The translations under genes and the position numbers were made by a program. Shown one piece after another: positions 56-37,867 of a stretch of DNA of 37,867 nt. Location of the stretch: the IMG/VR virus record IMGVR_UViG_3300045988_120615. One strand, 5' to 3'. How positions within the stretch are numbered: position 1 is the first letter of the stretch; each line of letters begins with the position of its first letter. The notes beneath the pieces are model-generated. The model saw nothing but the letters and a program-made list of their open reading frames with translations. It did not search any database and was not told the DNA's origin. Origin of the DNA: a virus.

Positions 56-892
56 ACCGGCGAACTGGGCGCTGATGTTTTCCCACGTGCCACCATAGAG
101 ATCGGCTGGGGCGGCCATACCGGAAAACTGTATACAATATGCTCCGACCGGCATGGCTGACGGGATGACGATGTTGAAGCCGGTGGCCGGGTTTTGGAGT
201 ACCCATTTGCCCTGCGTAGAATCGTATTGCAATATCATCCAGTATCCATTACCGGCAATATCGCCAATAGCAAGCGGTTGGTATGTCCCTTTGGTGATGG
301 TGGTGGCGGTAAGACCATCCGGACTGAACGTCGGTGTCGTTGTGGCGTTTGACGCAAGCGCACGCACGAAAACAACAAGGCCGTTCGTCAATTCGGTAAT
401 CGCAGGATCGAATGTCGCGGTAATGGCGTCAGATGTGCCTTCACCGACAGCGATATACAGCGATGAACCTTTTGCTGCATCGCCAGCCCACGGCAGCCAC
501 GAAGTGCCGATTGATTCAGGGGATTCATTGAAGTCGGTCGTATTGTTGGCAATCGCGCTGACATACGCTGATGCGCCGTCATTGGATTGCAATACCGCCC
601 CCAGTGGATAGCCGCCGATTGTTGAGGCAAAGTCTGCGTTGAAAGTCGGTAAACCACCAGATTGAGAAAACCCGATGCTCGACGAAAGCGCGAACAAAAT
701 GCCGTTCATGTCCATGCCCTGCGGCGGCAAACCGCCGGCGACAAGCGGCGTCATCGTGACAGGCGGGAAGCCCTTTTGGTACGACGCATAATTGGTCTGT
801 CCTGTTTCTGTAGATGGCGTTACCGGAATCGTGTTTTTGTCGCCCTGCGACGCAAAAGGAACCGGCATCAAAACTTGTGCTGGAACGCTCAT
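1..892 (-). CDS. Tail fibre protein, constant N-terminal/shaft part. The ORF starts at 892, runs off the window start and continues in frame at 37812 to 37601; total 1104 nt, 367 aa.
   Basis: Minus-strand translation from the ATG at 892 gives MSVPAQVLMPVPFASQGDKNTIPVTPSTETGQTNYASYQKGFPP...GMDMNGILFALSSS...GGYPLGAVLQ, a conserved phage tail-fibre N-terminal domain. There are no stops down to position 1. Frame arithmetic (892-1 and 37813-37603 are both multiples of 3) joins it to the C-terminal tip ending TAG at 37601-37603. The six-frame track omits it because it is open-ended within the window. Confidence 0.7.
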   Translation of the reverse strand, partial: MSVPAQVLMPVPFASQGDKNTIPVTPSTETGQTNYASYQKGFPPVTMTPLVAGGLPPQGMDMNGILFALSSSIGFSQSGGLPTFNADFASTIGGYPLGAVLQSNDGASAYVSAIANNTTDFNESPESIGTSWLPWAGDAAKGSSLYIAVGEGTSDAITATFDPAITELTNGLVVFVRALASNATTTPTFSPDGLTATTITKGTYQPLAIGDIAGNGYWMILQYDSTQGKWVLQNPATGFNIVIPSAMPVGAYCIQFSGMAAPADLYGGTWENISAQFAGLFFRAEGGNAAAFGSTQT

Positions 893-10681: not shown

Positions 10682-11060
10682 CTGTTTGCAATGTCACGAT
10701 GACGCAGCACCAGTCCGGCCATGTTTCCATGACCTGACTGACTAACCACGTCTGCGGAGAGCTGGCAGGGTCTTGCGGAAAAACAAGCAAATCCGCTCCG
10801 GTCGCATCTGGGCGCGAAATCGCTTTCACATCGCCATACAGATAGACCTTGCGCATCGTTCCCTGTATGTTCAGTCCGTTGATGTGCTGCAAATCCGAAC
10901 CTGACAGCGCCTGCACATTGGCAAGAACCGTTGTGCTTTCGTATTCCGGTACCTGTTGGAAATCTTCGGACGTGGAAAACCCGGTAGAGCGCATCCACGT
11001 TACGGACGTGTTTGGATTGACGGTTTGTGTCACTCCGTTTGCTATTTGTCGTAGGTTCAT
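10674..11060 (-). CDS. Hypothetical virion/neck protein
   Basis: 128-aa ORF overlapping its neighbours by a few nt. Confidence 0.35.
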   Translation of the reverse strand: MNLRQIANGVTQTVNPNTSVTWMRSTGFSTSEDFQQVPEYESTTVLANVQALSGSDLQHINGLNIQGTMRKVYLYGDVKAISRPDATGADLLVFPQDPASSPQTWLVSQVMETWPDWCCVIVTLQTDD

Positions 11061-11569
11061 TTTTTAACGGCAATTCCGGTGCAGGTGGCCAGCATGTGAC
11101 CGGTGTCAACGAGTGGTTTTGTCGTCACGCCTTCGCCTCGCTGGCCTTCGGCAACCGCTCTGGCAGCATCGCCGACTGTTTTCCCGGTTATGTCTTTGCC
11201 TTCCTTGCGCCACTGACGCAACAGCACCGTCACGGGCGACAGTTCAGGCTCAAAGACCTGCGTAATGGTCTGGCGCATGTCTCCGGCAGCTTTTTGGGCT
11301 ACCAGCGTCATGCCTTGTTCTGCGCTCATTTTCCCGCGCAGCACTTGAGAAACAACCTTCCCGGTCGTTCTTGCCCATTCTCCCTTCTGGGATTCAGCCG
11401 TTGGGCGCATAAAAGGCCGAGGCGGAATGCGTGACGTGCCGTACTCGTTGTATATGGCAACTTGCGCGACTGGCACGCCGTCGTCATAACGCGCAGATTC
11501 AAACCAGCCCGCTTGTGCTGAATATTCCTCAAGCGACTTCATGCGCTTTTTCAGATCGTGCAGTTTCAA
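11057..11569 (-). CDS. Head-tail joining / virion morphogenesis protein (HK97 gp10 / Mu gpG-like)
   Basis: 170 aa with the C-terminal motif KPLVDTGHMLATCTGIAV. Confidence 0.4.
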   Translation of the reverse strand: MKLHDLKKRMKSLEEYSAQAGWFESARYDDGVPVAQVAIYNEYGTSRIPPRPFMRPTAESQKGEWARTTGKVVSQVLRGKMSAEQGMTLVAQKAAGDMRQTITQVFEPELSPVTVLLRQWRKEGKDITGKTVGDAARAVAEGQRGEGVTTKPLVDTGHMLATCTGIAVKK

Positions 11570-13525: not shown

Positions 13526-14023
13526 TTACTCAGTCAGTTCGACGATCGCTTCGCCAGCCCCGGATGTATTGAAACGTACAATTTTCGAATTTGGGATCAG
13601 TGTGTAACCTTCTGATGCGGTTCCCGTGGAATTGGCTTGCAACGTGCCATCAGTCTGGGAAAACTCGATCTTGTTACCGATTGCGGCTGCGCTTTTGAGG
13701 TTGACCAGAATACCGCTTGTCAGCGTAACGCCCTGGACTACCGTATTGTTGGGCAGTGCCATGGTCGGTTCCAGTGTCCCGGCAGTCGTCCCGTTTAGCG
13801 CGTACAATTTCGAATTGGACAAAATTCCCGCGAAAGCGCCGGTCCCTCCGATCGTGAACTTGCCGTTTTCGCCGGTAACATGTGTCATGGCGCTTCCCAC
13901 GACGTTCAGGGCTGCATTGGTTGTATTTAGGATGCCTGCCTGTGCCCGGACCGGGCCGGAAAGCACGATATCGCCGACAATACCGGTCGTCTGAAATTGT
14001 CTGATTGTTTTCTGGACTGCCAT
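13526..14023 (-). CDS. Hypothetical head protein (decoration/scaffold-like, DUF2190-like position)
   Basis: 165 aa, Gly/Thr/Ala-rich, between the protease and capsid genes. Confidence 0.35.
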   Translation of the reverse strand: MAVQKTIRQFQTTGIVGDIVLSGPVRAQAGILNTTNAALNVVGSAMTHVTGENGKFTIGGTGAFAGILSNSKLYALNGTTAGTLEPTMALPNNTVVQGVTLTSGILVNLKSAAAIGNKIEFSQTDGTLQANSTGTASEGYTLIPNSKIVRFNTSGAGEAIVELTE

Positions 14024-14025
14024 GT

Positions 14026-17083
<3,058 letters not shown>

Positions 17084-21666: not shown

Positions 21667-21988
21667 AGTTCAACCGATTTTTTTCATAAAACTCACGCGT
21701 TTCCGCATTAAAGTTTTCTAAAAATTCGTTCATTGATTGTTCTGCGCGTTTTAAAAAATTCTCATACTTTCTTTTTGTAAAGTTTTCTCTAAAGAAAATC
21801 TCTACATCAAATCCACGGAAAACCATCACTGCCGGAGGGGCCCCGCGGGATTTTATTGGCTTTTTGAATTTTCTACGTTGTCTTCGATACCAAGATATTT
21901 CGTTTTTTTGGTTCGCATCCATTCGGCTCCGTTTTTTTGGGTAATTTTTTTCTCGGTTCCTGTTCTTCATCGTTTGCCCTATATGCAT
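21641..21988 (-). CDS. Hypothetical protein in an AT-rich islet
   Basis: 115-aa ORF, possibly starting at an internal Met. The region is AT-rich relative to its flanks. Confidence 0.2.
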   Translation of the reverse strand: MHIGQTMKNRNREKNYPKKRSRMDANQKNEISWYRRQRRKFKKPIKSRGAPPAVMVFRGFDVEIFFRENFTKRKYENFLKRAEQSMNEFLENFNAETREFYEKNRLNFAAENDIV

Positions 21989-22389
21989 TCAACCAACACT
22001 TCTACCCGCGGAAAGTCGGAATATCGCTTATCGACAGTCGCATGCGATACCTTCGCATCGTCAGCGTAAACCACGCCATTCAAGGCGTCCGACACAACCT
22101 TGCCGACGTTGTCCCAGTCCGGCTTTTTTGTATGCCTGAATTCACCGGACAATGCTTTTGCCCTGACCGACTTTGTGCAGGATTTCGGTATCGGGAAAAA
22201 CGCCGTCACGGAAAGCGAAATCGCGCCCGTGAGCAGCTTTTTGCCCTTCATGGCTTTCATGGCACACAGCTTGACGATCGCTTCGTATGAGCGCGTTTTA
22301 TCGGGCGTGTAGGCGTGTCCGTTTTTCGTGAAACGCGGACGGGCTTTTGCGACTGGGGCGCCGGGAACGGAAAATCGGATACAGGTCAT
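21979..22389 (-). CDS. rusA: RusA Holliday-junction resolvase
   Basis: 136 aa with GAPVAKARPRFT...DWDNVGKVVSDALNGVVYADDAKV, the RusA signature. Confidence 0.7.
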   Translation of the reverse strand: MTCIRFSVPGAPVAKARPRFTKNGHAYTPDKTRSYEAIVKLCAMKAMKGKKLLTGAISLSVTAFFPIPKSCTKSVRAKALSGEFRHTKKPDWDNVGKVVSDALNGVVYADDAKVSHATVDKRYSDFPRVEVLVECI

Positions 22390-23790: not shown

Positions 23791-24598
23791 AAATCAATCG
23801 TTTAGCACGTTCTCCAGCTTCCATGTTCCGTTCGTACAGCGTTTTTTCCTGTCTGCCTCCCGGACGGTTACGCACCCAATCTGCCTTGAATCCGCGCCAG
23901 CCGTTAGCGCAAACGGTTTCCAGCACCTCCGTCAATGTCATTCCGGCTTTTTGCGCTTCCCGGATCAATCCTTTGATCGCTGTCTCCGATATCGGTGCTT
24001 TCAAGCGCTTTCGCAATTCGGCAAAGTCTCTGGCAACGTCATCAGGCACTCCATCCCGGATCAGCAGGTCGGTCGAAAACGGCGCTTGCGCCTTTTGACG
24101 GTTCCCTGATGGTTCTATTGATGGTTCATTGATGGTTATGGGTGCACGTGGTGCGGGGGTCCCCCGCATCTCCTGCGGGGGTGGGGTGCACGTGGTGCGG
24201 GGGTGGGGTGCATCTGGTGCGGGGCGCATCTCCTGCGGGGGTGCATCTGGTGCGGGGGTTGTGGATAACTCCGGCCATTCTGAAACAGGTGAAATCCGGT
24301 ATATCGTGCTTTGTCCCTTGCGCATTGTCGCGATCATGTATCCCATTTCGACAAGACGCTTGATCGCCCCCTGCACTGCACGTTCTGACAGACTTGTTTT
24401 TTTGCATAGGGTCGATATGGACGGGTAGCAATCGCCCTCATCGCTGGCGTTATCACATAGTGCGACAAAAACAAACTTCTGCGTTGTCGGCAATTCGGTT
24501 CCGAATGCCGCTGTCATCAGTTTTACGCTCATTTCTTTACCCCAACCATTCCCGATAAAAACCACCATTCCACCGTCTTCCGGTGGGCCTCTTCCCAC
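23759..24598 (-). CDS. Replication initiator (lambda O-like; N-terminal HTH, C-terminal replisome-organiser-like domain) with embedded origin iterons
   Basis: 279 aa. N-terminus: QKFVFVALCDNASDEGDCYPSISTLCKKTSLSERAVQGAIKRLVEMGYM. A Pro-rich linker is encoded by the DNA iterons. C-terminus: LIRDGVPDDVARDFAELRKRLKAPISETAIKGLIREAQKAG. Confidence 0.55.
   Translation of the reverse strand: MGRGPPEDGGMVVFIGNGWGKEMSVKLMTAAFGTELPTTQKFVFVALCDNASDEGDCYPSISTLCKKTSLSERAVQGAIKRLVEMGYMIATMRKGQSTIYRISPVSEWPELSTTPAPDAPPQEMRPAPDAPHPRTTCTPPPQEMRGTPAPRAPITINEPSIEPSGNRQKAQAPFSTDLLIRDGVPDDVARDFAELRKRLKAPISETAIKGLIREAQKAGMTLTEVLETVCANGWRGFKADWVRNRPGGRQEKTLYERNMEAGERAKRLIFGEDYAEQGL
24105..24260. repeat. Iteron cluster (putative replication origin) inside the initiator gene
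   Basis: TTGATGGTT occurs three times, GGGTGCACGTGGTGCGGGGG twice, GGTGCATCTGGTGCGGGG twice and CGCATCTCCTGCGGGGG twice, in direct orientation. Confidence 0.55.
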
Positions 24599-24828
24599 GC
24601 TTCAACGCGTTCTGCCTTGCTCAATCGGCTCCCCTGATCGATTTCCATATGGCAGTCATGGCACAGATAAGCCACTCGGAAATCATGCGCCTTGATCCCT
24701 TTCCCCTTCCCGTCCCGCGACTGATTGCTGTGAGCGGCTACAACGGTTCTGTCATTGACACGACCACATGCAAAACAGCAAGGCGAGAATTTCGCAAAAT
24801 CAAGTAACTTTTTATTCCGGTAGATCAC
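24529..24828 (-). CDS. DUF1364-like zinc/HNH-like small protein
   Basis: 99 aa with CCFACG...AAHSNQSRDGKGKGIKAHDFRVAYLCHDCH. Confidence 0.35.
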   Translation of the reverse strand: MIYRNKKLLDFAKFSPCCFACGRVNDRTVVAAHSNQSRDGKGKGIKAHDFRVAYLCHDCHMEIDQGSRLSKAERVEAWEEAHRKTVEWWFLSGMVGVKK

Positions 24829-25286
24829 GCAAACATCCTTTCGGAAATGCCAAACTGGACACCAAGAGACGCTCCATAGGCGTATATTTGTTCGAGATAA
24901 AGAGAAAACCCTTTTGTTGTCAGATCGCCCGTTGACGCCTTCAGAATCCGTTCACCAGAAGGCAAATACCGCCATTTCTGATAACCTTCCCGCGTAAGTT
25001 CCGTATCGGCTTCTTCTGGCAAAAATTCCCGTTTGAAATGCTCGTGCCAGACATCGGCCGAGTACGTCTGACCGTTGACGTATGCCTGACTCGCAATGTC
25101 ACGCAGCGGCCCTGCCCACATCAGCGCGTTCTGGTCTTTGTTTCGGCTTTTGATTTGTTCGCCGATCCTGATTTCAATCGGGTTGGCAGCGTCAACCGGA
25201 ACAGTCTTGAGCACCGCAATCGCGGTACCAAGCTGCGCCGGACTGACGACAAGGATTTTCCGTGTAGGGAACCGAGCGCGTTTCAT
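24825..25286 (-). CDS. ninB: NinB/Orf-family recombination protein
   Basis: The start is taken at the ATG at 25286, which has a GGAG RBS and an ATGA overlap with the upstream gene. IRIGEQIKSRNKDQNALMWAGPLRDIASQ...WHEHFKREFL parallels lambda NinB (QERNRSLDQNRKLWACLGDVSRQ...). Confidence 0.6.
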   Translation of the reverse strand: MKRARFPTRKILVVSPAQLGTAIAVLKTVPVDAANPIEIRIGEQIKSRNKDQNALMWAGPLRDIASQAYVNGQTYSADVWHEHFKREFLPEEADTELTREGYQKWRYLPSGERILKASTGDLTTKGFSLYLEQIYAYGASLGVQFGISERMFA

Positions 25287-25585
25287 GGTTTTCTCCAGAT
25301 TTTGATTTCGCGGCGATGACCGGCTGTGCGAGTGGACAGCGCACGCCAACCGGTGTCGATTAACCCATGTTCCTTGATCTGCTGGTGTAACAGGCCGCCC
25401 CAAGCATTCGGGTGATGCGGTTCAGGTAATCCGTCTTCTTCTGCGAACTGGCGGAACATGTCAGAGGTGAACTCCCTGTTTCCGATATGGACAAGGAAGC
25501 GGCGGAAACATGCTTCTGCGCTGGCCGTCCAGTCGGATTGCAGAACAGAAGAAATGCCGGCTTGTTTCTTTGCTTCTCCAGTCAT
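25283..25585 (-). CDS. Hypothetical early protein
   Basis: 100-aa ORF with a GGAGG RBS, translationally coupled to ninB. Confidence 0.4.
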   Translation of the reverse strand: MTGEAKKQAGISSVLQSDWTASAEACFRRFLVHIGNREFTSDMFRQFAEEDGLPEPHHPNAWGGLLHQQIKEHGLIDTGWRALSTRTAGHRREIKIWRKP

Positions 25586-27989: not shown

Positions 27990-28165
27990 ATATCTCTCCC
28001 CTTGCAATGGATGGTGACAAGACCGTTGGACAGTCTTGCATGATGGAAATCGATGGCTTGTACAAGAAAGGTGTTATCAGCGAAACCGAGCGGGATGCTT
28101 TGATGGATCGGGTTTTTATGGCTGTCGATGATATTTGCAAACAGATTATTGAAGGACGGGAATGA
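27986..28165 (+). CDS. Hypothetical small protein
   Basis: 59 aa from the internal ATG (MNISPLAMDGDK...). It is coupled to the upstream peptide and overlaps the erf start. Confidence 0.35.
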   Translation: MNISPLAMDGDKTVGQSCMMEIDGLYKKGVISETERDALMDRVFMAVDDICKQIIEGRE

Positions 28166-28758
28166 ATGTTTTTGAAAAGCTAAATGCTGTTCGGAGTGAA
28201 TTTCTGAAGTCCGAACACAAGAAAAGCGGATACAACAAGTTTTCCGACTACCGCTATTTCGAGCTGGCGGATTTCCTCCCGGAAGTGCTGATGCTGTGCG
28301 CCAAAAACGGCTTGGGCGGTCATTTCGCCGCGGCAAATGGATTGGCGACGCTGGAAGTGGTCAATATCGAACAGCCTGAGGAAAAAATCATTTTTTCGTG
28401 CCCTCTCGGTTCCGCAAATTTAAAAGCGTGCCATGAGGTGCAGAACATAGGGGCCTGCATTACTTACGCCCGCCGGTATCTCTGGGGATGCGTTGTCGAA
28501 CTAATCGAAAACGATGCCCTGGACGCAATAACAGGGAAGGAAGAGAAGTCTCCAATAAAAAAGGAAAAATCGGATTACGACGATCTGGAAAACCCGGAAG
28601 ACTGGACGGATGTGTTTACGGCGATGGGGGACGCATCGACACTGGATGAGCTGCGGGCGATTTTCGGTCCGGCATGGAAAAAAGCAAAAGGCAAAGACAA
28701 GGACGATATCAAAAAAGAATATGACCGCCTGAAAGCGATGATGGAGGAAAAACAATGA
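28162..28758 (+). CDS. erf: ERF-family single-strand annealing recombinase
   Basis: 198 aa. [20 protein letters not shown] and [29 protein letters not shown] parallel P22 Erf (FGKYKYRSCEDIL; TSSYARKYCLNGLFGIDDAKDAD). Confidence 0.75.
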
Positions 28759-29156
28759 GTATCAATAAAGCCATCATTATCGGATTCTGCGGCCGTGATC
28801 CGGAAATACGATATATGCCGAATGGCGATCAGATCACAAACATTTCTGTCGCCACAACGGAAAGCTGGATAGACAAATCCACCGGGGAAAAGAAAGAACT
28901 AACGGAATGGCATCGTATCACTTTTTACCGAAAACTGGCTGAAATCGCCGGACAGTATCTGAAAAAAGGGGCGCAGGTTTATGTGGAAGGACGGCTGAAA
29001 ACACGGAAGTACACAGACAAAAATGGCATAGAGCGTTACCAGACTGAAATCATCGCCGATCAGATGCAGATGCTTGGCCAAAAGCATGACGGTCAGCAAA
29101 CAAAGCGAAATACGTATCAGGCAGGTAAAGACGGTTCAGACGATATTCCTTTTTGA
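28755..29156 (+). CDS. ssb: Single-stranded DNA-binding protein
   Basis: 133 aa with an OB-fold N-terminus ([39 protein letters not shown]) and an acidic C-terminal tail DDIPF. Confidence 0.85.
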
Positions 29157-32767: not shown

Positions 32768-32945
32768 TTTTTTACCAAAAACATACGAAGAGATAGAAGA
32801 TTTTGTTGGTCTAAATTTTATATACCGGGAAGAGAAAGATGGAGAAATATTTTTCAAACTGTCAGCACATGATCTTTTGTCCTCATTTAGGGACTTGAAG
32901 GATGCGATTGGAGAGAAAAATGATAATGGTGTACGTGCAATATAA
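32754..32945 (+). CDS. Hypothetical small protein
   Basis: 63-aa ORF at the end of the AT-rich island. Confidence 0.3.
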   Translation: MKPTDFLPKTYEEIEDFVGLNFIYREEKDGEIFFKLSAHDLLSSFRDLKDAIGEKNDNGVRAI

Positions 32946-33299
32946 GGACAGACCAGATGTCTGCGGGACGGCTTTCGGTGGTGTTATGGACGAATTTCTG
33001 AATCAGGATGAACTGGCCTTTTTAACCGGAAGGACAAAAAAATCCGCACAAATTCGGTGGCTGACGAACTGGGGATACCGTTCCAGCGTTTTCAGTTTCG
33101 CGATTTACGCGCCAAAGCGGCAACAGACATAAGGGACATTTACGGCATCGTCGAAGCATCTAACCTGCTGGGACACACCAACACCAGAACGACGGAAATC
33201 TACATACGACAGCAAAAAGGCAAGACGGTAAGACCGGTTATGGCGAAACAGGTGTTTCGCCATGAAGACGCAAAGAAAGTCGGGAATGATGATAAGTAA
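32902..33299 (+). pseudogene. int: Remnant of a lambda-type tyrosine integrase (C-terminal ~130 codons only, frameshifted)
   Basis: The second frame (33057-33299) reads ADELGIPFQRFQFRDLRAKAATDIRDIYGIVEASNLLGHTNTRTTEIYIRQQ. This matches the lambda Int C-terminus (TFHELRSLSARLY...LLGHKSDTMASQYRDD), including the catalytic Tyr. The upstream part is in another frame; the A7 run at 33035-33041 is the likely shift site. The N-terminal two-thirds, carrying the catalytic Arg/Lys, is absent. Confidence 0.55.
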
Positions 33300-33968: not shown

Positions 33969-34140
33969 TTTTTCAGTTATTCGGTTTTTCCTTATAGCTG
34001 GACAGGTTCTTTAAAGCATTTTCGTTCTCTAAATTCTTCCTGCTTTCCCTCGTTCCAGTTCTGCACCGGTCGGTGGTACCCCATCACCCGCGTCCAGACT
34101 TCGCATGGCGTCCGTTTTTCCCGTGGCAATTCTTCTCTTG

Positions 34141-34389
34141 TCATTTCGCTTCTCCCGTGAAATGCTTGTTTTTACGTATTCTGCTGATCTTCCATCCGCC
34201 CTCAAACCCGACACAATCGGCGATGAAATCCCATACATCAGAGGCTATTTCGATGAGACAGTCAGGTACAAATTCGCGGGCCATTATGTCCGCTCCGTCC
34301 ATTCCGTCAAAATTGATGTACGCCGGCACGCAACCACAGAAAAGCCCTGTGTACTCGTATTGCGTTCTCAATTCTTTTATCTTGCTCAT
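34141..34389 (-). CDS. Hypothetical small protein between the HNH and Rz genes (uncertain)
   Basis: 82 aa from the internal ATG (MSKIKELRTQYEYTGLFCGCVPAYINFDGMDGADIMAREF...). No recognisable motif. Confidence 0.2.
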   Translation of the reverse strand: MSKIKELRTQYEYTGLFCGCVPAYINFDGMDGADIMAREFVPDCLIEIASDVWDFIADCVGFEGGWKISRIRKNKHFTGEAK

Positions 34390-34500: not shown

Positions 34501-35184
34501 TTAATTTGTTGGTAATTTTCCGGAACATATTGACCTTCGCAAATGAGCTGCTTTTATTTTTAGCTTTGTTTCTTCACTCATTGGACCGCGCTTTTTTCCT
34601 TTTTGAGATTCCCAATATTTTTTGTATCTTGCGCGTTTCTCGTCTGTCATTGGCCCATAATTCGGGTTCTTTTCACCACGAATTTTTGAATATATTTTGT
34701 TCTTTTTAACTGGGTCTGATAAAAGCTTTCTCCGTGCCTCAATAGATGCCTGTATCTGTTCTCTGCTAGGCTTCCATCCACTCGCTTTTCTTGTAGCCGC
34801 TATTTTTTCCCTTACCTCTTTTGGCATTTCTCGATTTTTCCATGCCGCTCTGCCTTTCTCCGCCATATCGCGCATGTTGTCAGCGTTCGTTCCGACAAAT
34901 AGATGTTTAGGGTTTACGCATGACGGGTTGTCGCAACGATGACAAACAAAAATCCCTTCATGTATTTCTCCGAAAAATGCCTCATATGATATTCTGTGCG
35001 CTAATAATATTTTGTTACAGATATTCAACACACCATATCCTGCTTTTGTTTTACCGCCATTCCACTCCCAACATTCGTTTTCTCCTTTGACATGTGTTCT
35101 TCTTAAAATGCGACATTTTAGAGAACAATATTTCATTCTGTACGGACCTTCAAAATTCGTCCCACAATATCTGCATACTGGCAT
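34501..35184 (-). CDS. HNH homing endonuclease with NUMOD3-like C-terminal repeats
   Basis: 227 aa: CWEWNGGKTKAGYGV...LAHRISYEAFFGEIHEGIFVCHRCDNPSCVNPKHLFVGTNADN, followed by repeated ...E(V/T)R(E/K)KI(A/K)A... modules. The gene is markedly AT-rich relative to its flanks. Confidence 0.7.
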   Translation of the reverse strand: MPVCRYCGTNFEGPYRMKYCSLKCRILRRTHVKGENECWEWNGGKTKAGYGVLNICNKILLAHRISYEAFFGEIHEGIFVCHRCDNPSCVNPKHLFVGTNADNMRDMAEKGRAAWKNREMPKEVREKIAATRKASGWKPSREQIQASIEARRKLLSDPVKKNKIYSKIRGEKNPNYGPMTDEKRARYKKYWESQKGKKRGPMSEETKLKIKAAHLRRSICSGKLPTN

Positions 35185-35693: not shown

Positions 35694-35958
35694 TTATACC
35701 CCCGTGCTGCGAATAGGCGTAGCATTTCAGCTCGTACAGCTCTTTTTGGAGCGCGTCGAACTTGTTGTGCAAGTCGTCGTGACGTTCATCATTTGTACGG
35801 ATCCGTTCTTCAAGCCGATCTTTCATCCGATCGATGCATCCGCGCAATCCGTCAATCAATTTGTATAGCCGCCGAAAGAAAAACCAGAACATTGTCGCAA
35901 CACAGACAACAAGCCCGGAAATGATGCTGATAAGAAGCTCTGGCGTTATGTAATTCAT
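35686..35958 (-). CDS. Holin candidate (single TMD plus C-terminal coiled coil), translationally coupled to the SAR endolysin
   Basis: 90 aa from the ATG at 35958 with a strong GGAAGGAAAGAGG RBS. It contains the TMD ELLISIISGLVVCVATMFWFFF and a charged helical C-terminus. Its stop overlaps the endolysin ATG (ATGAATAA). Confidence 0.4.
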   Translation of the reverse strand: MNYITPELLISIISGLVVCVATMFWFFFRRLYKLIDGLRGCIDRMKDRLEERIRTNDERHDDLHNKFDALQKELYELKCYAYSQHGGINE

Positions 35959-36539
35959 CCTCTTTCCTTCCACGGGTTGATGCTGCACACAAACATCGCC
36001 GTATAGTCAGGTATGACAAATGCCGGATTCTCGGCATGCTGAATGCGGTACTTGCACGCACTCTGCAATTTCCAGCCAAGATAAACGCGCAGACACCGCC
36101 CGGAAAACGTTGGCCAGATCACGTAAAGCATCCATCGCGCCTTGATCGGATTGCGGGACGTGGTCGCAAACCAAATGCCCGGATGAAACGGATCGTTGTC
36201 CGTCTCGCTGTCTCCGCATTGCAATAGCTCATCGTCCGAACCGATGAACGTGCTAAATACCGTCCATCGCCATCCGTATGCTTTGTTCCGCCATAGCCAT
36301 GCGACACGCTGAATGTACATGCCGATTTTCGGATGCGCGGCAACAAACCCCGCCCACCGATCGAAATGTCCGCTGTCCCCCTCAATAGGATTGTCAGGCG
36401 TGAGCCAGAGACGCAGCGGGTTTTTGTCGGACAATGTGACATCGCCCTGTCCATCGGCGAACAGGGCGATTATCGGTGCGAGTGGAAAAGCGAGAAGACA
36501 GACGATTGTAGTGAGTGGCAGGTATAGCAGCCAGATCAT
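35955..36539 (-). CDS. Membrane-anchored hypothetical protein between tfa and the lysis genes (moron position)
   Basis: 194 aa with an N-terminal signal/anchor (MIWLLYLPLTTIVCLLAFPLAPIIALFA) and a Trp-rich body. It has ATGA overlaps with both neighbours. Confidence 0.4.
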   Translation of the reverse strand: MIWLLYLPLTTIVCLLAFPLAPIIALFADGQGDVTLSDKNPLRLWLTPDNPIEGDSGHFDRWAGFVAAHPKIGMYIQRVAWLWRNKAYGWRWTVFSTFIGSDDELLQCGDSETDNDPFHPGIWFATTSRNPIKARWMLYVIWPTFSGRCLRVYLGWKLQSACKYRIQHAENPAFVIPDYTAMFVCSINPWKERG

Positions 36540-37273
36540 ACCGCTGCGTCCTCGTATGGTTTAACCCACAGTTCGGACTGTTTCTGACCGGCCAGCGCAC
36601 AGGCTCTTGCAAGCTGCTCATAGCTGACGCTTGCGATTGTGTTATCTGCCAGCACCCAGTCGGTCTTTTCGCTCATCTGAATGCCGGACAGCTGTGCAGA
36701 CAGCACTTTTCTTGCCATGCGGTCTTGTGCCTTTTCGTCTCCATCAAATACCATACCGTCCACTTCGACGGTGATGCGGGAGACAGCTTCGGCGCGATCC
36801 GTCTTGGCTTCCGACATGGCGACTTCCGCGGCTTTGTCATCGTCCAGCACCCATTGCCCGGAGACGGCCTTGTATGCCGGGCCGGGTTGTTTGCCGGTCA
36901 TTTCGATCAGTCCTTCCTGGGGCCAGTAGCCGAAATTCCCGTCCCGATCGAACGTCTTTCTGACTTTGGTGGCATCGAATGATCCCTCAAGTGCGTAGGT
37001 TTTGGGTGGGTATTTTGTGTCGATTTCCGACTGTTCCATGCGTTGGAATTCGTTGTCGTCGGCATTGATTTTGTAGCCTTCCGGCAGATCGATGATTCCT
37101 TCCGATACCTGTTGAGACAGGGGTTTCAGGCCGGTCAGATCGTCTTTCAATGCCGCGAAAGGTAGTCCGACATACCCCGGAAATCCGCTCGGGACTTCGA
37201 TGGCGTTTTCCGGTTTTTTGGCAGAGCAACTGTGTTTTGTGATTACTCCATTATCGATGATGATGTATTCCAT
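36536..37273 (-). CDS. Tail fibre assembly protein (Tfa/gpG/U-like chaperone), located outside the invertible segment
   Basis: 245 aa. The C-terminal ...EKTDWVLADNTIASVSYEQLARACALAGQKQSELWVKPYEDA matches the Tfa C-terminal consensus. It has an AGAGGA RBS and lies 25 nt downstream of IR-L. Confidence 0.6.
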   Translation of the reverse strand: MEYIIIDNGVITKHSCSAKKPENAIEVPSGFPGYVGLPFAALKDDLTGLKPLSQQVSEGIIDLPEGYKINADDNEFQRMEQSEIDTKYPPKTYALEGSFDATKVRKTFDRDGNFGYWPQEGLIEMTGKQPGPAYKAVSGQWVLDDDKAAEVAMSEAKTDRAEAVSRITVEVDGMVFDGDEKAQDRMARKVLSAQLSGIQMSEKTDWVLADNTIASVSYEQLARACALAGQKQSELWVKPYEDAAV

Positions 37274-37298
37274 GTTTTTTCCTCTTTGTGGGGAGTGG

Positions 37299-37370
37299 CT
37301 GTTTTTCCGTGCTGAAGGTGGTAATGCTGCCGCGTTCGGCTCGACGCAGACAGACGGGGCACCGAATATT
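37299..37370. repeat. Left inverted repeat (IR-L, 72 bp) of the tail-fibre tip segment
   Basis: It is the reverse complement of 37796-37867 with one mismatch (37805 C versus T). In both orientations it encodes the junction peptide LFFRAEGGNAAAFGSTQTDGAPNI. Confidence 0.85.
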
Positions 37371-37604
37371 TATGGTAGTGTTTCTTTCGGTGTATATAAC
37401 GATTCCGCGGGGGCTGCACCTCATAACCCAATTGGTGCTTTCGGTATCGGGGCGGCAGAACTTACATGGCTGAGTCAAGGCGAAAATCAAAGATCAGCGC
37501 CAACGTATTTCGATTTTTATGCCAGCAGAGTTGACAGTAGATACAACTTACCCGAAGTGAGGACGGTTAACAGTACTATCCGTGTCTGGAAAAGGACAGC
37601 CTAA
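37371..37604 (+). other. Silent alternative tail-fibre C-terminal tip cassette (Sv-prime-like). It has no promoter, RBS or start of its own and would be expressed only after inversion or conversion.
   Basis: The + frame continuing from IR-L reads ...GAPNI-YGSVSFGVYNDSAGAAPHNPIGAFGIGAAELTWLSQGENQRSAPTYFDFYASRVDSRYNLPEVRTVNSTIRVWKRTA-stop (TAA at 37602-37604). It is homologous to, but diverged from, the expressed tip. The upstream part of track ORF 37200-37604 is antisense to the tfa start and is not a real N-terminus. Confidence 0.6.
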
Positions 37605-37867
37605 GCAGTGCGTTTCCAGATGCGGACGGTGCTGTTGTAAGGGCGTACTTCAGCCAGAACATATTTCCCGTTGCTATTTGAGGCGACAAAATTGATTTGA
37701 GCAGCACCGCGTGTCGCGAAGTTCCAGCCCGCGCCACCTACATTGTAAAATGCCCCCGATGCATATCCACCATCATTAACACCGATTGATCCTGTAATAT
37801 TCGGCGCCCCGTCTGTCTGCGTCGAGCCGAACGCGGCAGCATTACCACCTTCAGCACGGAAAAACAG
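37601..37867 (-). CDS. Tail fibre protein, currently expressed C-terminal receptor-binding tip. It continues from 1-892 across the circular junction.
   Basis: The reverse-complement translation reads LFFRAEGGNAAAFGSTQTDGAPNITGSIGVNDGGYASGAFYNVGGAGWNFATRGAAQINFVASNSNGKYVLAEVRPYNSTVRIWKRTA-stop (TAG, complement at 37601-37603). It is in frame with the ORF that starts at 892. Confidence 0.7.
   Translation of the reverse strand: MFFRAEGGNAAAFGSTQTDGAPNITGSIGVNDGGYASGAFYNVGGAGWNFATRGAAQINFVASNSNGKYVLAEVRPYNSTVRIWKRTA
37796..37867. repeat. Right inverted repeat (IR-R, 72 bp). Positions 37813-37867 are duplicated at 1-55.
   Basis: See IR-L. Together the two repeats bracket a 425-bp segment (37371-37795) that holds the two tail-to-tail tip cassettes. 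Confidence 0.85.

Follow-up and report, generated by a model that had tools for sequence, protein, structure and literature searches.

A 425-bp tip-only invertible segment in the tail-fibre gene of a human gut myovirus that may be flipped by general homologous recombination

The window analysed here, the whole 37,867-nt stretch of IMG/VR virus record IMGVR_UViG_3300045988_120615, is the genome of a temperate-type myovirus of ~37.8 kb from the human gut. Its tail-fibre gene runs across the ends of the record and carries two alternative C-terminal coding segments, called tips A and B below, that lie tail to tail between two inverted repeats (IRs). L numbers denote the 39 loci that we gathered by fibre protein searches and contig look-ups, and P numbers denote proteins. 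The features of the module are as follows.

56–892, minus strand: constant fibre body, codons 1–279, with its ATG at 892–890; the gene leaves the window at its start and resumes at 37867/37812.
37796–37867, minus strand: IR-R, the expressed arm of the inverted repeat, encoding the junction peptide as residues L280–I303 of the fibre; positions 1–55 duplicate its last 55 nt.
37601–37795, minus strand: tip A, now expressed, 64 codons (TGSIGVNDGG...VRIWKRTA) plus a TAG stop (complement of 37601–37603); silent in L006.
37371–37604, plus strand: tip B, now silent, 77 codons (YGSVSFGVYND...IRVWKRTA) plus a TAA stop at 37602–37604, without a conserved start of its own.
37299–37370, plus strand: IR-L, the silent arm, which encodes the 24-aa junction reversed relative to IR-R; 25 nt separate its outer end from the start codon (ATG) of the downstream gene.
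36536–37273, minus strand: single downstream tail protein, 245 aa, outside the invertible segment and common to both tip states.
37569–37636, no strand: imperfect palindrome at the overlapping stops, with 32-nt arms that are 75% complementary and 4 nt apart.
1–55, no strand: assembly overlap, a duplicate of 37813–37867; circularity is corroborated by L032.

The two 72-nt arms are complementary at 71 of 72 positions and are separated by 425 nt, the sole mismatch being a synonymous A/G at repeat position 62. None of 100 shuffles of the window contained any match to a 72-nt inverted repeat, for which the chance expectation was 0. Both arms encode the same junction peptide, LFFRAEGGNAAAFGSTQTDGAPNI, and the 425-bp segment between them contains only the two tips. 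The cassettes converge to the point that their stop codons, TAA on the plus strand and TAG on the minus strand, overlap by two bases, and both tips terminate in NSTxRxWKRTA, within which the final residues take the form (V/I)R(I/V)WKRTA. This anatomy bears out the initial annotation of the window, which had described 72-bp inverted repeats around 425 bp, one junction peptide encoded by each repeat and tail-to-tail tips with overlapping stops and a shared C-terminal motif. Its length for the silent tip (77 aa) also stands, but the expressed tip has 64 aa rather than the ~70 proposed.

A plus-strand open reading frame (ORF) at 37200–37604 was ruled out as an independent gene, as a stop lies immediately before the silent arm in relatives. 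This stop, directly upstream of the silent arm in L006, L008 and L010, indicates that the silent cassette has no independent ORF. The palindrome at 37569–37636 exists because both convergent cassettes encode NSTxRxWKRTA; its predicted RNA fold has an energy of −28.7 kcal/mol (z −3.7). In the fibre mRNA, the 72-nt arms would pair as a long-range duplex too, and either this duplex or the hairpin could affect expression of the downstream gene. A promoter and terminator scan of the module gave no signal above chance. A diversity-generating retroelement was ruled out on three grounds: the inverted orientation of the repeats, the lack of sequence relatedness between the cassettes and the absence of a reverse-transcriptase match in Pfam.

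The fibre gene becomes continuous when the record is read as a circle. Bases 1–55 are a 100% identical direct repeat of 37813–37867 at a spacing of 37812, as befits a circularised contig with a true length of 37,812 bp, and translation through the join gives a 367-aa fibre ORF made up of 279 body, 24 junction and 64 tip A codons. A second contig, L032 (MEGAHIT, k = 127; ERR414404, human gut metagenome; 37,829 bp), in which the fibre gene is internal, is 100% identical to the window over 7,080 nt across the end join. As L032 reproduces both the join and the orientation of the module, both are real. The body at 56–892 is thus joined to position 37812, a point on which the initial annotation had been cautious, and the supposed third copy of the repeat at 1–55 turns out to be the 55-nt overlap of the circular assembly. 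A hairpin telomere or other linear end was ruled out as the source of this end repeat, since L032 runs across the join.

That the segment inverts is supported by the presence of both orientations across otherwise identical genomes from separate assemblies. Contigs L008 and L010, both built with SPAdes, share flanks of 10,912 and 3,958 nt that are 100% identical, and the 591-nt module of one is the exact reverse complement of the other, in a comparison that extends over 15.3 kb. Because the 74-nt repeat exceeds k = 55, orientation in these SPAdes contigs is possibly arbitrary. The same relationship was seen in MEGAHIT contigs from different samples, L037 (k119_95000, ERZ27289095) and L039 (k119_49197, ERZ19661708), in which flanks of 3,412 and 2,270 nt are 100% identical and the 591-nt module is exactly reversed. 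Here, each orientation is supported by reads, because at k = 119 every k-mer that covers the repeat includes unique flank. The exchange is reciprocal, with both tips changing places, and is therefore an inversion and not a one-way conversion.

For the window itself, the closest comparison is with L006, which has flanks 98.5–98.9% identical to those of the window and carries the same tips A and B in a reversed module. Tip B is the expressed tip in L006 (protein P0002) and also in P0124, a protein from a 37,819-bp Joint Genome Institute (JGI) contig that corresponds to the window body fused to tip B with the single difference D87A. A third flipped pair is formed by L001 and L016 against L017. 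At repeat position 62, the A or G variant goes with the same tip in the window as in L006, placing the crossover outside that position. Collectively, the inverted repeats fall within two coding fragments that face opposite ways and belong to one gene family, and both orientations occur among otherwise near-identical genomes, as expected of a gene-altering programmed inversion. The proposal that inversion swaps the tip while body and single downstream gene stay fixed is therefore supported by eight lineages with the layout, the flipped pairs, L006, P0124 and the reciprocity of the exchange. Flipping would, we infer, change host range.

The same layout recurs in these eight related gut-metagenome lineages (L001, L006, L008/L039, L010/L037/L038, L009, L016, L017 and L030), in the order body, junction, tip X, overlapping stops, inverted tip Y, inverted junction, ~25 nt and a DUF4376 gene; the L017 contig terminates within the second arm. 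The starts of the two C-terminal motifs are spaced by 43 nt in all seven arrangements in which both motifs were found. Other relatives (L002–L004, L007, L019 and L033) have one tip followed directly by the DUF4376 gene and no silent cassette, indicating that the second cassette is an add-on to a simpler ancestral arrangement. A search of IMG/VR with the exact repeat sequence found nothing, no similar inverted-repeat modules were seen beside other fibre types in 18 loci, and a scan of genome contigs for the fibre returned only one metagenome-assembled genome, with a different C-terminus. Two IMG/VR contigs of related phages, L017 (end at 11421) and L018 (end at 10858), terminate at the inverted repeat or within it, as the window does at the outer edge of its own. 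Short-k assemblies systematically break at the module, which would be under-reported or mis-oriented in viral catalogues.

Silent cassettes are maintained in an intact state. All nine are open from junction to stop, and homologous tips have ratios of non-synonymous to synonymous substitution (dN/dS, Nei-Gojobori) of 0.05–0.7 wherever synonymous differences exist, including pairs in which both copies are silent. The silent copies of the window and L017, for example, differ by six synonymous changes and one non-synonymous change, and silent tip B of the window differs from the expressed tip B of L006 by three synonymous changes only. The decay of the silent cassette into a pseudo-tip, which the initial annotation had named, together with a single orientation in deep read data, as an outcome that would refute a switch, was not seen. 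For another tip, D, L001 and L017 have 100% identical DNA that includes the inner part of its repeat arm, although their flanks are only 94.5% identical. This identity stops at about repeat position 33–42. Cassettes evidently move between phages as well, with recombination at the junction.

The N-terminal part of the fibre matches tail fiber protein profiles in PHROGs (E 1e-32 to 1e-35), and identity in the body ranges from 57 to 97% across relatives. In an alignment of 27 fibres, an almost invariant body is followed by a conserved block, MPVG...GGTW.N.S..(Y/F)AG(L/Q/R)FFRAEGG.AA.FG..Q..GAPNI, then by a hypervariable stretch that makes up the bulk of the 64–77-residue tip, and finally by a second conserved block, F.AS.SN..Y...E(V/I)RP.NSTIRIWKRTA. 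At least ~20 tip types are found between these same blocks. Pfam gave no match to the C-terminal module of the window with either version of the tip, even at E 10 and including Collar (PF07484). A profile of the module nevertheless aligned with the Collar-containing modules of longer sister fibres (94% probability, E 1.3e-7, 117 columns), suggesting that it is a shortened relative. In light of this alignment, the shared WKRTA motif is best read as belonging to the scaffold of a Collar-like domain, of which it would form the last strand region and which any tip would have to keep; this explains the motif better than the Tfa recognition element that the initial annotation had tentatively proposed. 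A profile search of Protein Data Bank sequences gave no match, and AlphaFold2 models were of unusably low confidence, with a predicted local distance difference test score of 39.7 for the whole fibre and 54.3 for the C-terminal module.

The 245-aa protein encoded downstream had been taken for a tail-fibre assembly (Tfa) protein, an assignment that our searches did not uphold: neither Pfam nor PHROGs gave a match to a Tfa family profile. It falls just below the cutoff for Pfam DUF4376 (E 3.6e-5, 24.6 bits against a cutoff of 25) and has weak matches to PHROGs annotated as 'tail protein' or 'tail fiber protein' (E 1e-7 to 5e-6). The protein is 74–98% identical among phages with unrelated tips and so appears to be generic, not tip-specific. 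With tips alone in the segment and one downstream gene outside it, conserved to this degree whatever the tip, the earlier view that the module has no duplicated chaperone genes holds. The DUF4376 gene is followed by a gene for a DUF7338 membrane protein in the window (35955–36539), L001 and L032, and by a 78–79-aa ORF in its place in L002, L033 and L037; the presence of DUF7338 does not track the silent cassette.

We searched for an enzyme that might drive the inversion. Hin and Gin, used as serine invertase queries in tblastn against the whole window, gave a best E value of 0.5, XerD gave no match in the window, and two Pfam passes over all plausible ORFs of the window revealed no recombinase domain and no Resolvase match. 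No serine recombinase (Hin) was found within 10 kb of the module in 31 related loci. The only trace of a tyrosine recombinase in the window is an 80-aa C-terminal integrase remnant. The core of Din-type sites (AAACCnnGGTTT, or AAACC-NN-GGTTT) had no match with up to two mismatches in either 37299–37370 or 37796–37867; across the window, the AAACC-NN-GGTTT pattern occurred 12 times at the same tolerance, against 20 expected by chance. Genes with potential roles in homologous recombination are present, as listed below.

28162–28758, plus strand: Erf-like single-strand annealing protein (Pfam ERF; PHROGs Erf-like, E 7e-18), a candidate for repeat-mediated flipping.
28755–29156, plus strand: SSB (Pfam SSB), a candidate for repeat-mediated flipping.
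21979–22389, minus strand: RusA Holliday-junction resolvase (Pfam, E 3.5e-34), a candidate for an accessory function.
24825–25403, minus strand: NinB (Pfam, E 1e-10).

The arms themselves evolve in concert. Within a genome they are 0.99, 0.93, 0.99, 1.00, 0.93 and 0.89 identical, compared with a mean of 0.82 between genomes, and the two arms of a genome carry common genome-specific synonymous variants. The perfectly matching tracts differ in location between genomes: L001 has its tract in the outer 40 nt, L030 in the inner 50 nt. Such concerted evolution of the whole repeat is the product expected of heteroduplex repair during homologous recombination.

Given that there is no invertase, that the integrase is deleted and that the repeats hold no Din-type site, general homologous recombination is the most likely driver. 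We therefore somewhat favour a minimal, tip-only invertible switch that is flipped by this route. In such a switch, reciprocal recombination between the 72-nt junction copies would flip the 425-bp segment and bring tip B into the place of tip A on the same body, leaving the downstream tail-protein gene and its ribosome-binding site untouched. The second tip lies directly past the stop codon, promoterless and oppositely oriented, with the inverted copy of the junction ahead of it. Host RecA, the phage Erf, SSB, NinB and RusA proteins, or both sets together, are candidate catalysts, and gene conversion would keep the repeat arms alike. A more far-reaching version is a self-contained, enzyme-free programmed inversion, in which 24 codons for part of the domain scaffold of the fibre are kept by gene conversion as near-perfect arms of 72–74 nt and general recombination (phage Erf/NinB/RusA or host RecA) flips the segment often enough for bet-hedging on host range; we put this forward tentatively, as a possibility that falls somewhat short of probable. 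If true, the switch would travel with the fibre gene alone, work in any host and need one generic downstream protein for all tips.

Several observations weigh against flipping by general recombination, or against parts of the switch as a whole. The arms of L009 (3857–4465) agree at only 74% of positions, their longest perfect run being ~12–14 nt, and yet both cassettes are intact. Identity at this level would not sustain homologous recombination; the L009 copy may have been frozen recently, or flipping may need no more than a short conserved core, a point that would favour a site-specific enzyme. An efficient site-specific recombinase encoded by the host would likewise suit clean inversions that leave 15 kb otherwise unchanged, and the recombinase may come from a family outside Pfam. 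The exact flipped fibre predicted for the window is absent from the protein collection, in which only the one-residue variant P0124 was found, and exact look-ups for nine possible chimeric flipped products of L001/L016, whose arms are 93% identical, returned none. The missing L001/L016 forms are uninformative either way on the catalyst. Finally, receptor binding by the tip is a putative role, suggested by its position and hypervariability.

An enzyme acting in trans is the alternative that these points bring forward: the switch would be the same, flipped by an invertase of the host (Oxalobacter) or of a co-resident prophage at a short core within the repeat. The inversions are precise and reciprocal, with nothing else changed over 15 kb, the architecture of L009 is kept despite its diverged arms, and invertible regions without a nearby recombinase gene are on record (PMC9881135). 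A 13-nt stretch, GGTGGTGCGGCTG, is also common to the perfect tracts of several genomes, although it differs in the window (GGTGGTAATGCTG). We nonetheless consider such an enzyme unlikely, if clearly worth keeping in mind. The complete phage genome encodes no recombinase and none lies within 10 kb of the module in relatives, the repeats lack a Din-type site or obvious dyad symmetry, and concerted evolution affects the full 72 nt, synonymous sites among them, a span too wide to be explained by a short crossover site. A phage reliant on a host enzyme would, in addition, lose its tropism switch in new hosts.

The silent cassette could instead be a donor for non-reciprocal replacement or inter-phage exchange, as in pilin-type conversion, with the 5' junction and the 3' EVRPxNSTIRIWKRTA block as homology arms. 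Tips are indeed mosaic and horizontally mobile, as the identity of tip D in L001 and L017 illustrates; the many tip types (at least ~20) share the same conserved blocks, and L002, L007, L019 and L033 do without a silent cassette. Near-identical genomes, however, show an exact reciprocal swap, that is, an inversion; inter-phage exchange probably occurs too, but it leaves the flipped pairs unexplained, making the donor role improbable as an account of the module. More doubtful still is that the module is a frozen relic of an ancient inverted duplication in a phage that has lost the ability to switch. The protein collection lacks the exact flipped product and two independent assemblies of the window phage share one orientation, but the arms match at 71 of 72 positions, the silent tip is intact with only the three synonymous changes relative to its expressed copy in L006, and P0124, from a contig of equal size, is the flipped form but for one residue. 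An assembly artefact, in which the assembler made the repeat or its orientation, would account for the contig boundary, which coincides with the outer edge of IR-R and carries a 55-nt overlap, and for the breaks of L017 and L018 at the repeat, given that a SPAdes-type graph does not fix which way round a loop lies when the inverted repeats at its ends exceed k (here 72 nt against k = 55). This we regard as highly improbable: L032, assembled at k = 127, has the sequence and orientation of the window with the module internal; contigs at k = 119 show both orientations for a sister phage; and the arms of L001 share at most 40 identical nt and are distinguishable at any k above 40.

Inverting fibre segments of the Din family are known from phage Mu (G/Gin), P1 (C/Cin), e14 (P/Pin) and p15B (Min). 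These segments span 1.8–4.2 kb, with a U/U' assembly gene for each tip, an adjacent serine invertase, 26-bp gix/cix sites and Fis, and their inversion swaps determinants of host range. The window module resembles Mu G, P1 C, e14 P and p15B in having a constant N-terminal part outside the segment and opposed alternative C-termini between inverted repeats that lie within coding sequence. It departs from them in its 425-bp segment, which contains nothing but tips with overlapping stops, in the single downstream gene that both tips share and in the lack of an invertase and of a gix-like core. The initial annotation had described the module as the Mu G/P1 C/e14 P principle, which is apt for the architecture but does not extend to a Gin-like invertase or a gix-like site. 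In the tfpQ/tfpI pilin inversion of Moraxella, a segment of ~2 kb requires the dedicated Piv (DEDD/IS110-like) recombinase; it too places two tail-to-tail C-terminal cassettes in one segment with the constant N-terminal part outside, whereas the cassettes of the window are fibre tips, not pilin. In the distal fibre genes of T-even phages, short coding motifs that flank hypervariable adhesin segments reportedly allow homologous recombination to swap specificity, as is attributed to Tétart et al. in 1998. That exchange takes place between co-infecting genomes, unlike an intramolecular flip of a resident silent cassette. Rci shufflons, with a tyrosine recombinase and at least three short sfx repeats, differ from the two arms and one segment of the window.

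A further parallel is carotovoricin Er, in which the segment is said, from work by Nguyen et al. in 2001, to measure ~790 bp with 26-bp repeats; in both cases a small segment in a fibre gene exchanges only the C-terminal part. The passages on carotovoricin Er in PMC13195805 describe fibre inversion by Ein, with the dedicated ein invertase gene adjoining the locus. Unlike the window module, carotovoricin Er thus needs a dedicated enzyme and has short repeats. The immediate upstream neighbour of the fibre gene in the window belongs to PF11041, a family that we take to have been formerly named DUF2612. A survey of gene-altering inversions in bacterial genomes by Milman et al. (2023; PMC9881135) found tail fibre proteins to be enriched among the targets and emphasised nearby recombinase genes, and DUF2612 proteins were enriched as neighbours of inversion targets. 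The window module shares with that class its inverted repeats inside opposed coding fragments, and the class has intra-species variants in orientation; unlike the survey cases, the module lies in a free, circularly assembled phage genome without a nearby recombinase.

Annotation of the rest of the genome with Pfam and PHROGs revealed structural genes for terminase, portal, a Mu-F-like protein, major capsid, E217-like sheath and tube, baseplate J and Phage_Wedge1 (PF11041), after which the order is fibre, DUF4376 tail protein, DUF7338 protein, putative holin and lysozyme. A cI-like repressor (HTH_3 and Peptidase_S24) is also encoded. The excisionase-like ORF at 32902–33299 (DUF4224; PHROGs excisionase) is fused or truncated after '...SAQIRWLT'. 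The corresponding xis-int region of L019 has a 69-aa xis and a ~400-aa integrase, the latter split over two frames, and by this comparison a deletion of ~1 kb in the window runs from inside xis to inside int. The genome nonetheless assembles as a circle, and the phage may be a non-integrating or virulent derivative.

The host is probably Oxalobacter or a close relative, judging from relatedness and from a guanine-plus-cytosine content of 50.3%. The fibre cluster of L008 and L010 also includes proteins from Oxalobacter paraformigenes and O. formigenes HOxBLS; L033 is a prophage in the O. paraformigenes genome and the source of the paraformigenes protein in that cluster, and a phiPLPE-like prophage has been noted in HOxBLS (PMC3391216). 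When the module was compared by BLASTN with 50,697 records of cultured phages, the only matches were of 72–78 nt, at the N-terminus of fibres from Burkholderia and Ralstonia phages, so that the module appears to have no close cultured relative.

Other features of these genomes stand apart from the module. Four ~41-nt G-rich repeats (GGGTGCAyvTGGTGCGGGG...) at 24140–24279 fall where an HTH_36 gene encodes the proline-rich middle of its protein, and look like the iterons of a replication origin inside an initiator gene. An HNH_3/NUMOD3 homing-type endonuclease is encoded at 34501–35184, between the lysis genes, and close to it a 50-aa ORF (33992–34144) matches only the C-terminal end of the anaerobic ribonucleotide reductase NrdD; a small NRDD-matching ORF of similar kind is present in L037 and L039. 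Directly past the lysozyme gene, L001 carries an IS200/IS605-type element (TnpB/OrfB_IS605 and Y1 transposase) at 13550–15189.

Invertible tail-fibre segments are a textbook route by which phages alternate host range; those known are of kilobase size, with a chaperone for each tip, and depend on an invertase encoded next to them. Tail-fibre inversion is thus a known class, and what differs here is the 425-bp, tip-only scale, the overlapping stops, the one shared downstream gene and the absence of a recombinase from the genome. The design is reduced to ~0.43 kb, with tips of 64 and 77 codons on one scaffold, a single downstream protein and no genomic recombinase. If homologous recombination flips the module, searches that demand a nearby recombinase would miss such switches, and short-read assemblies with k below the length of the repeat would break at the module or orient it arbitrarily. 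The conserved junction and C-terminal blocks are natural splice points for the engineering of fibre tips. Through its relatives, the family is tied to prophages of Oxalobacter, which degrades oxalate in the gut and is of clinical interest, and tip switching may influence which Oxalobacter strains these phages attack.

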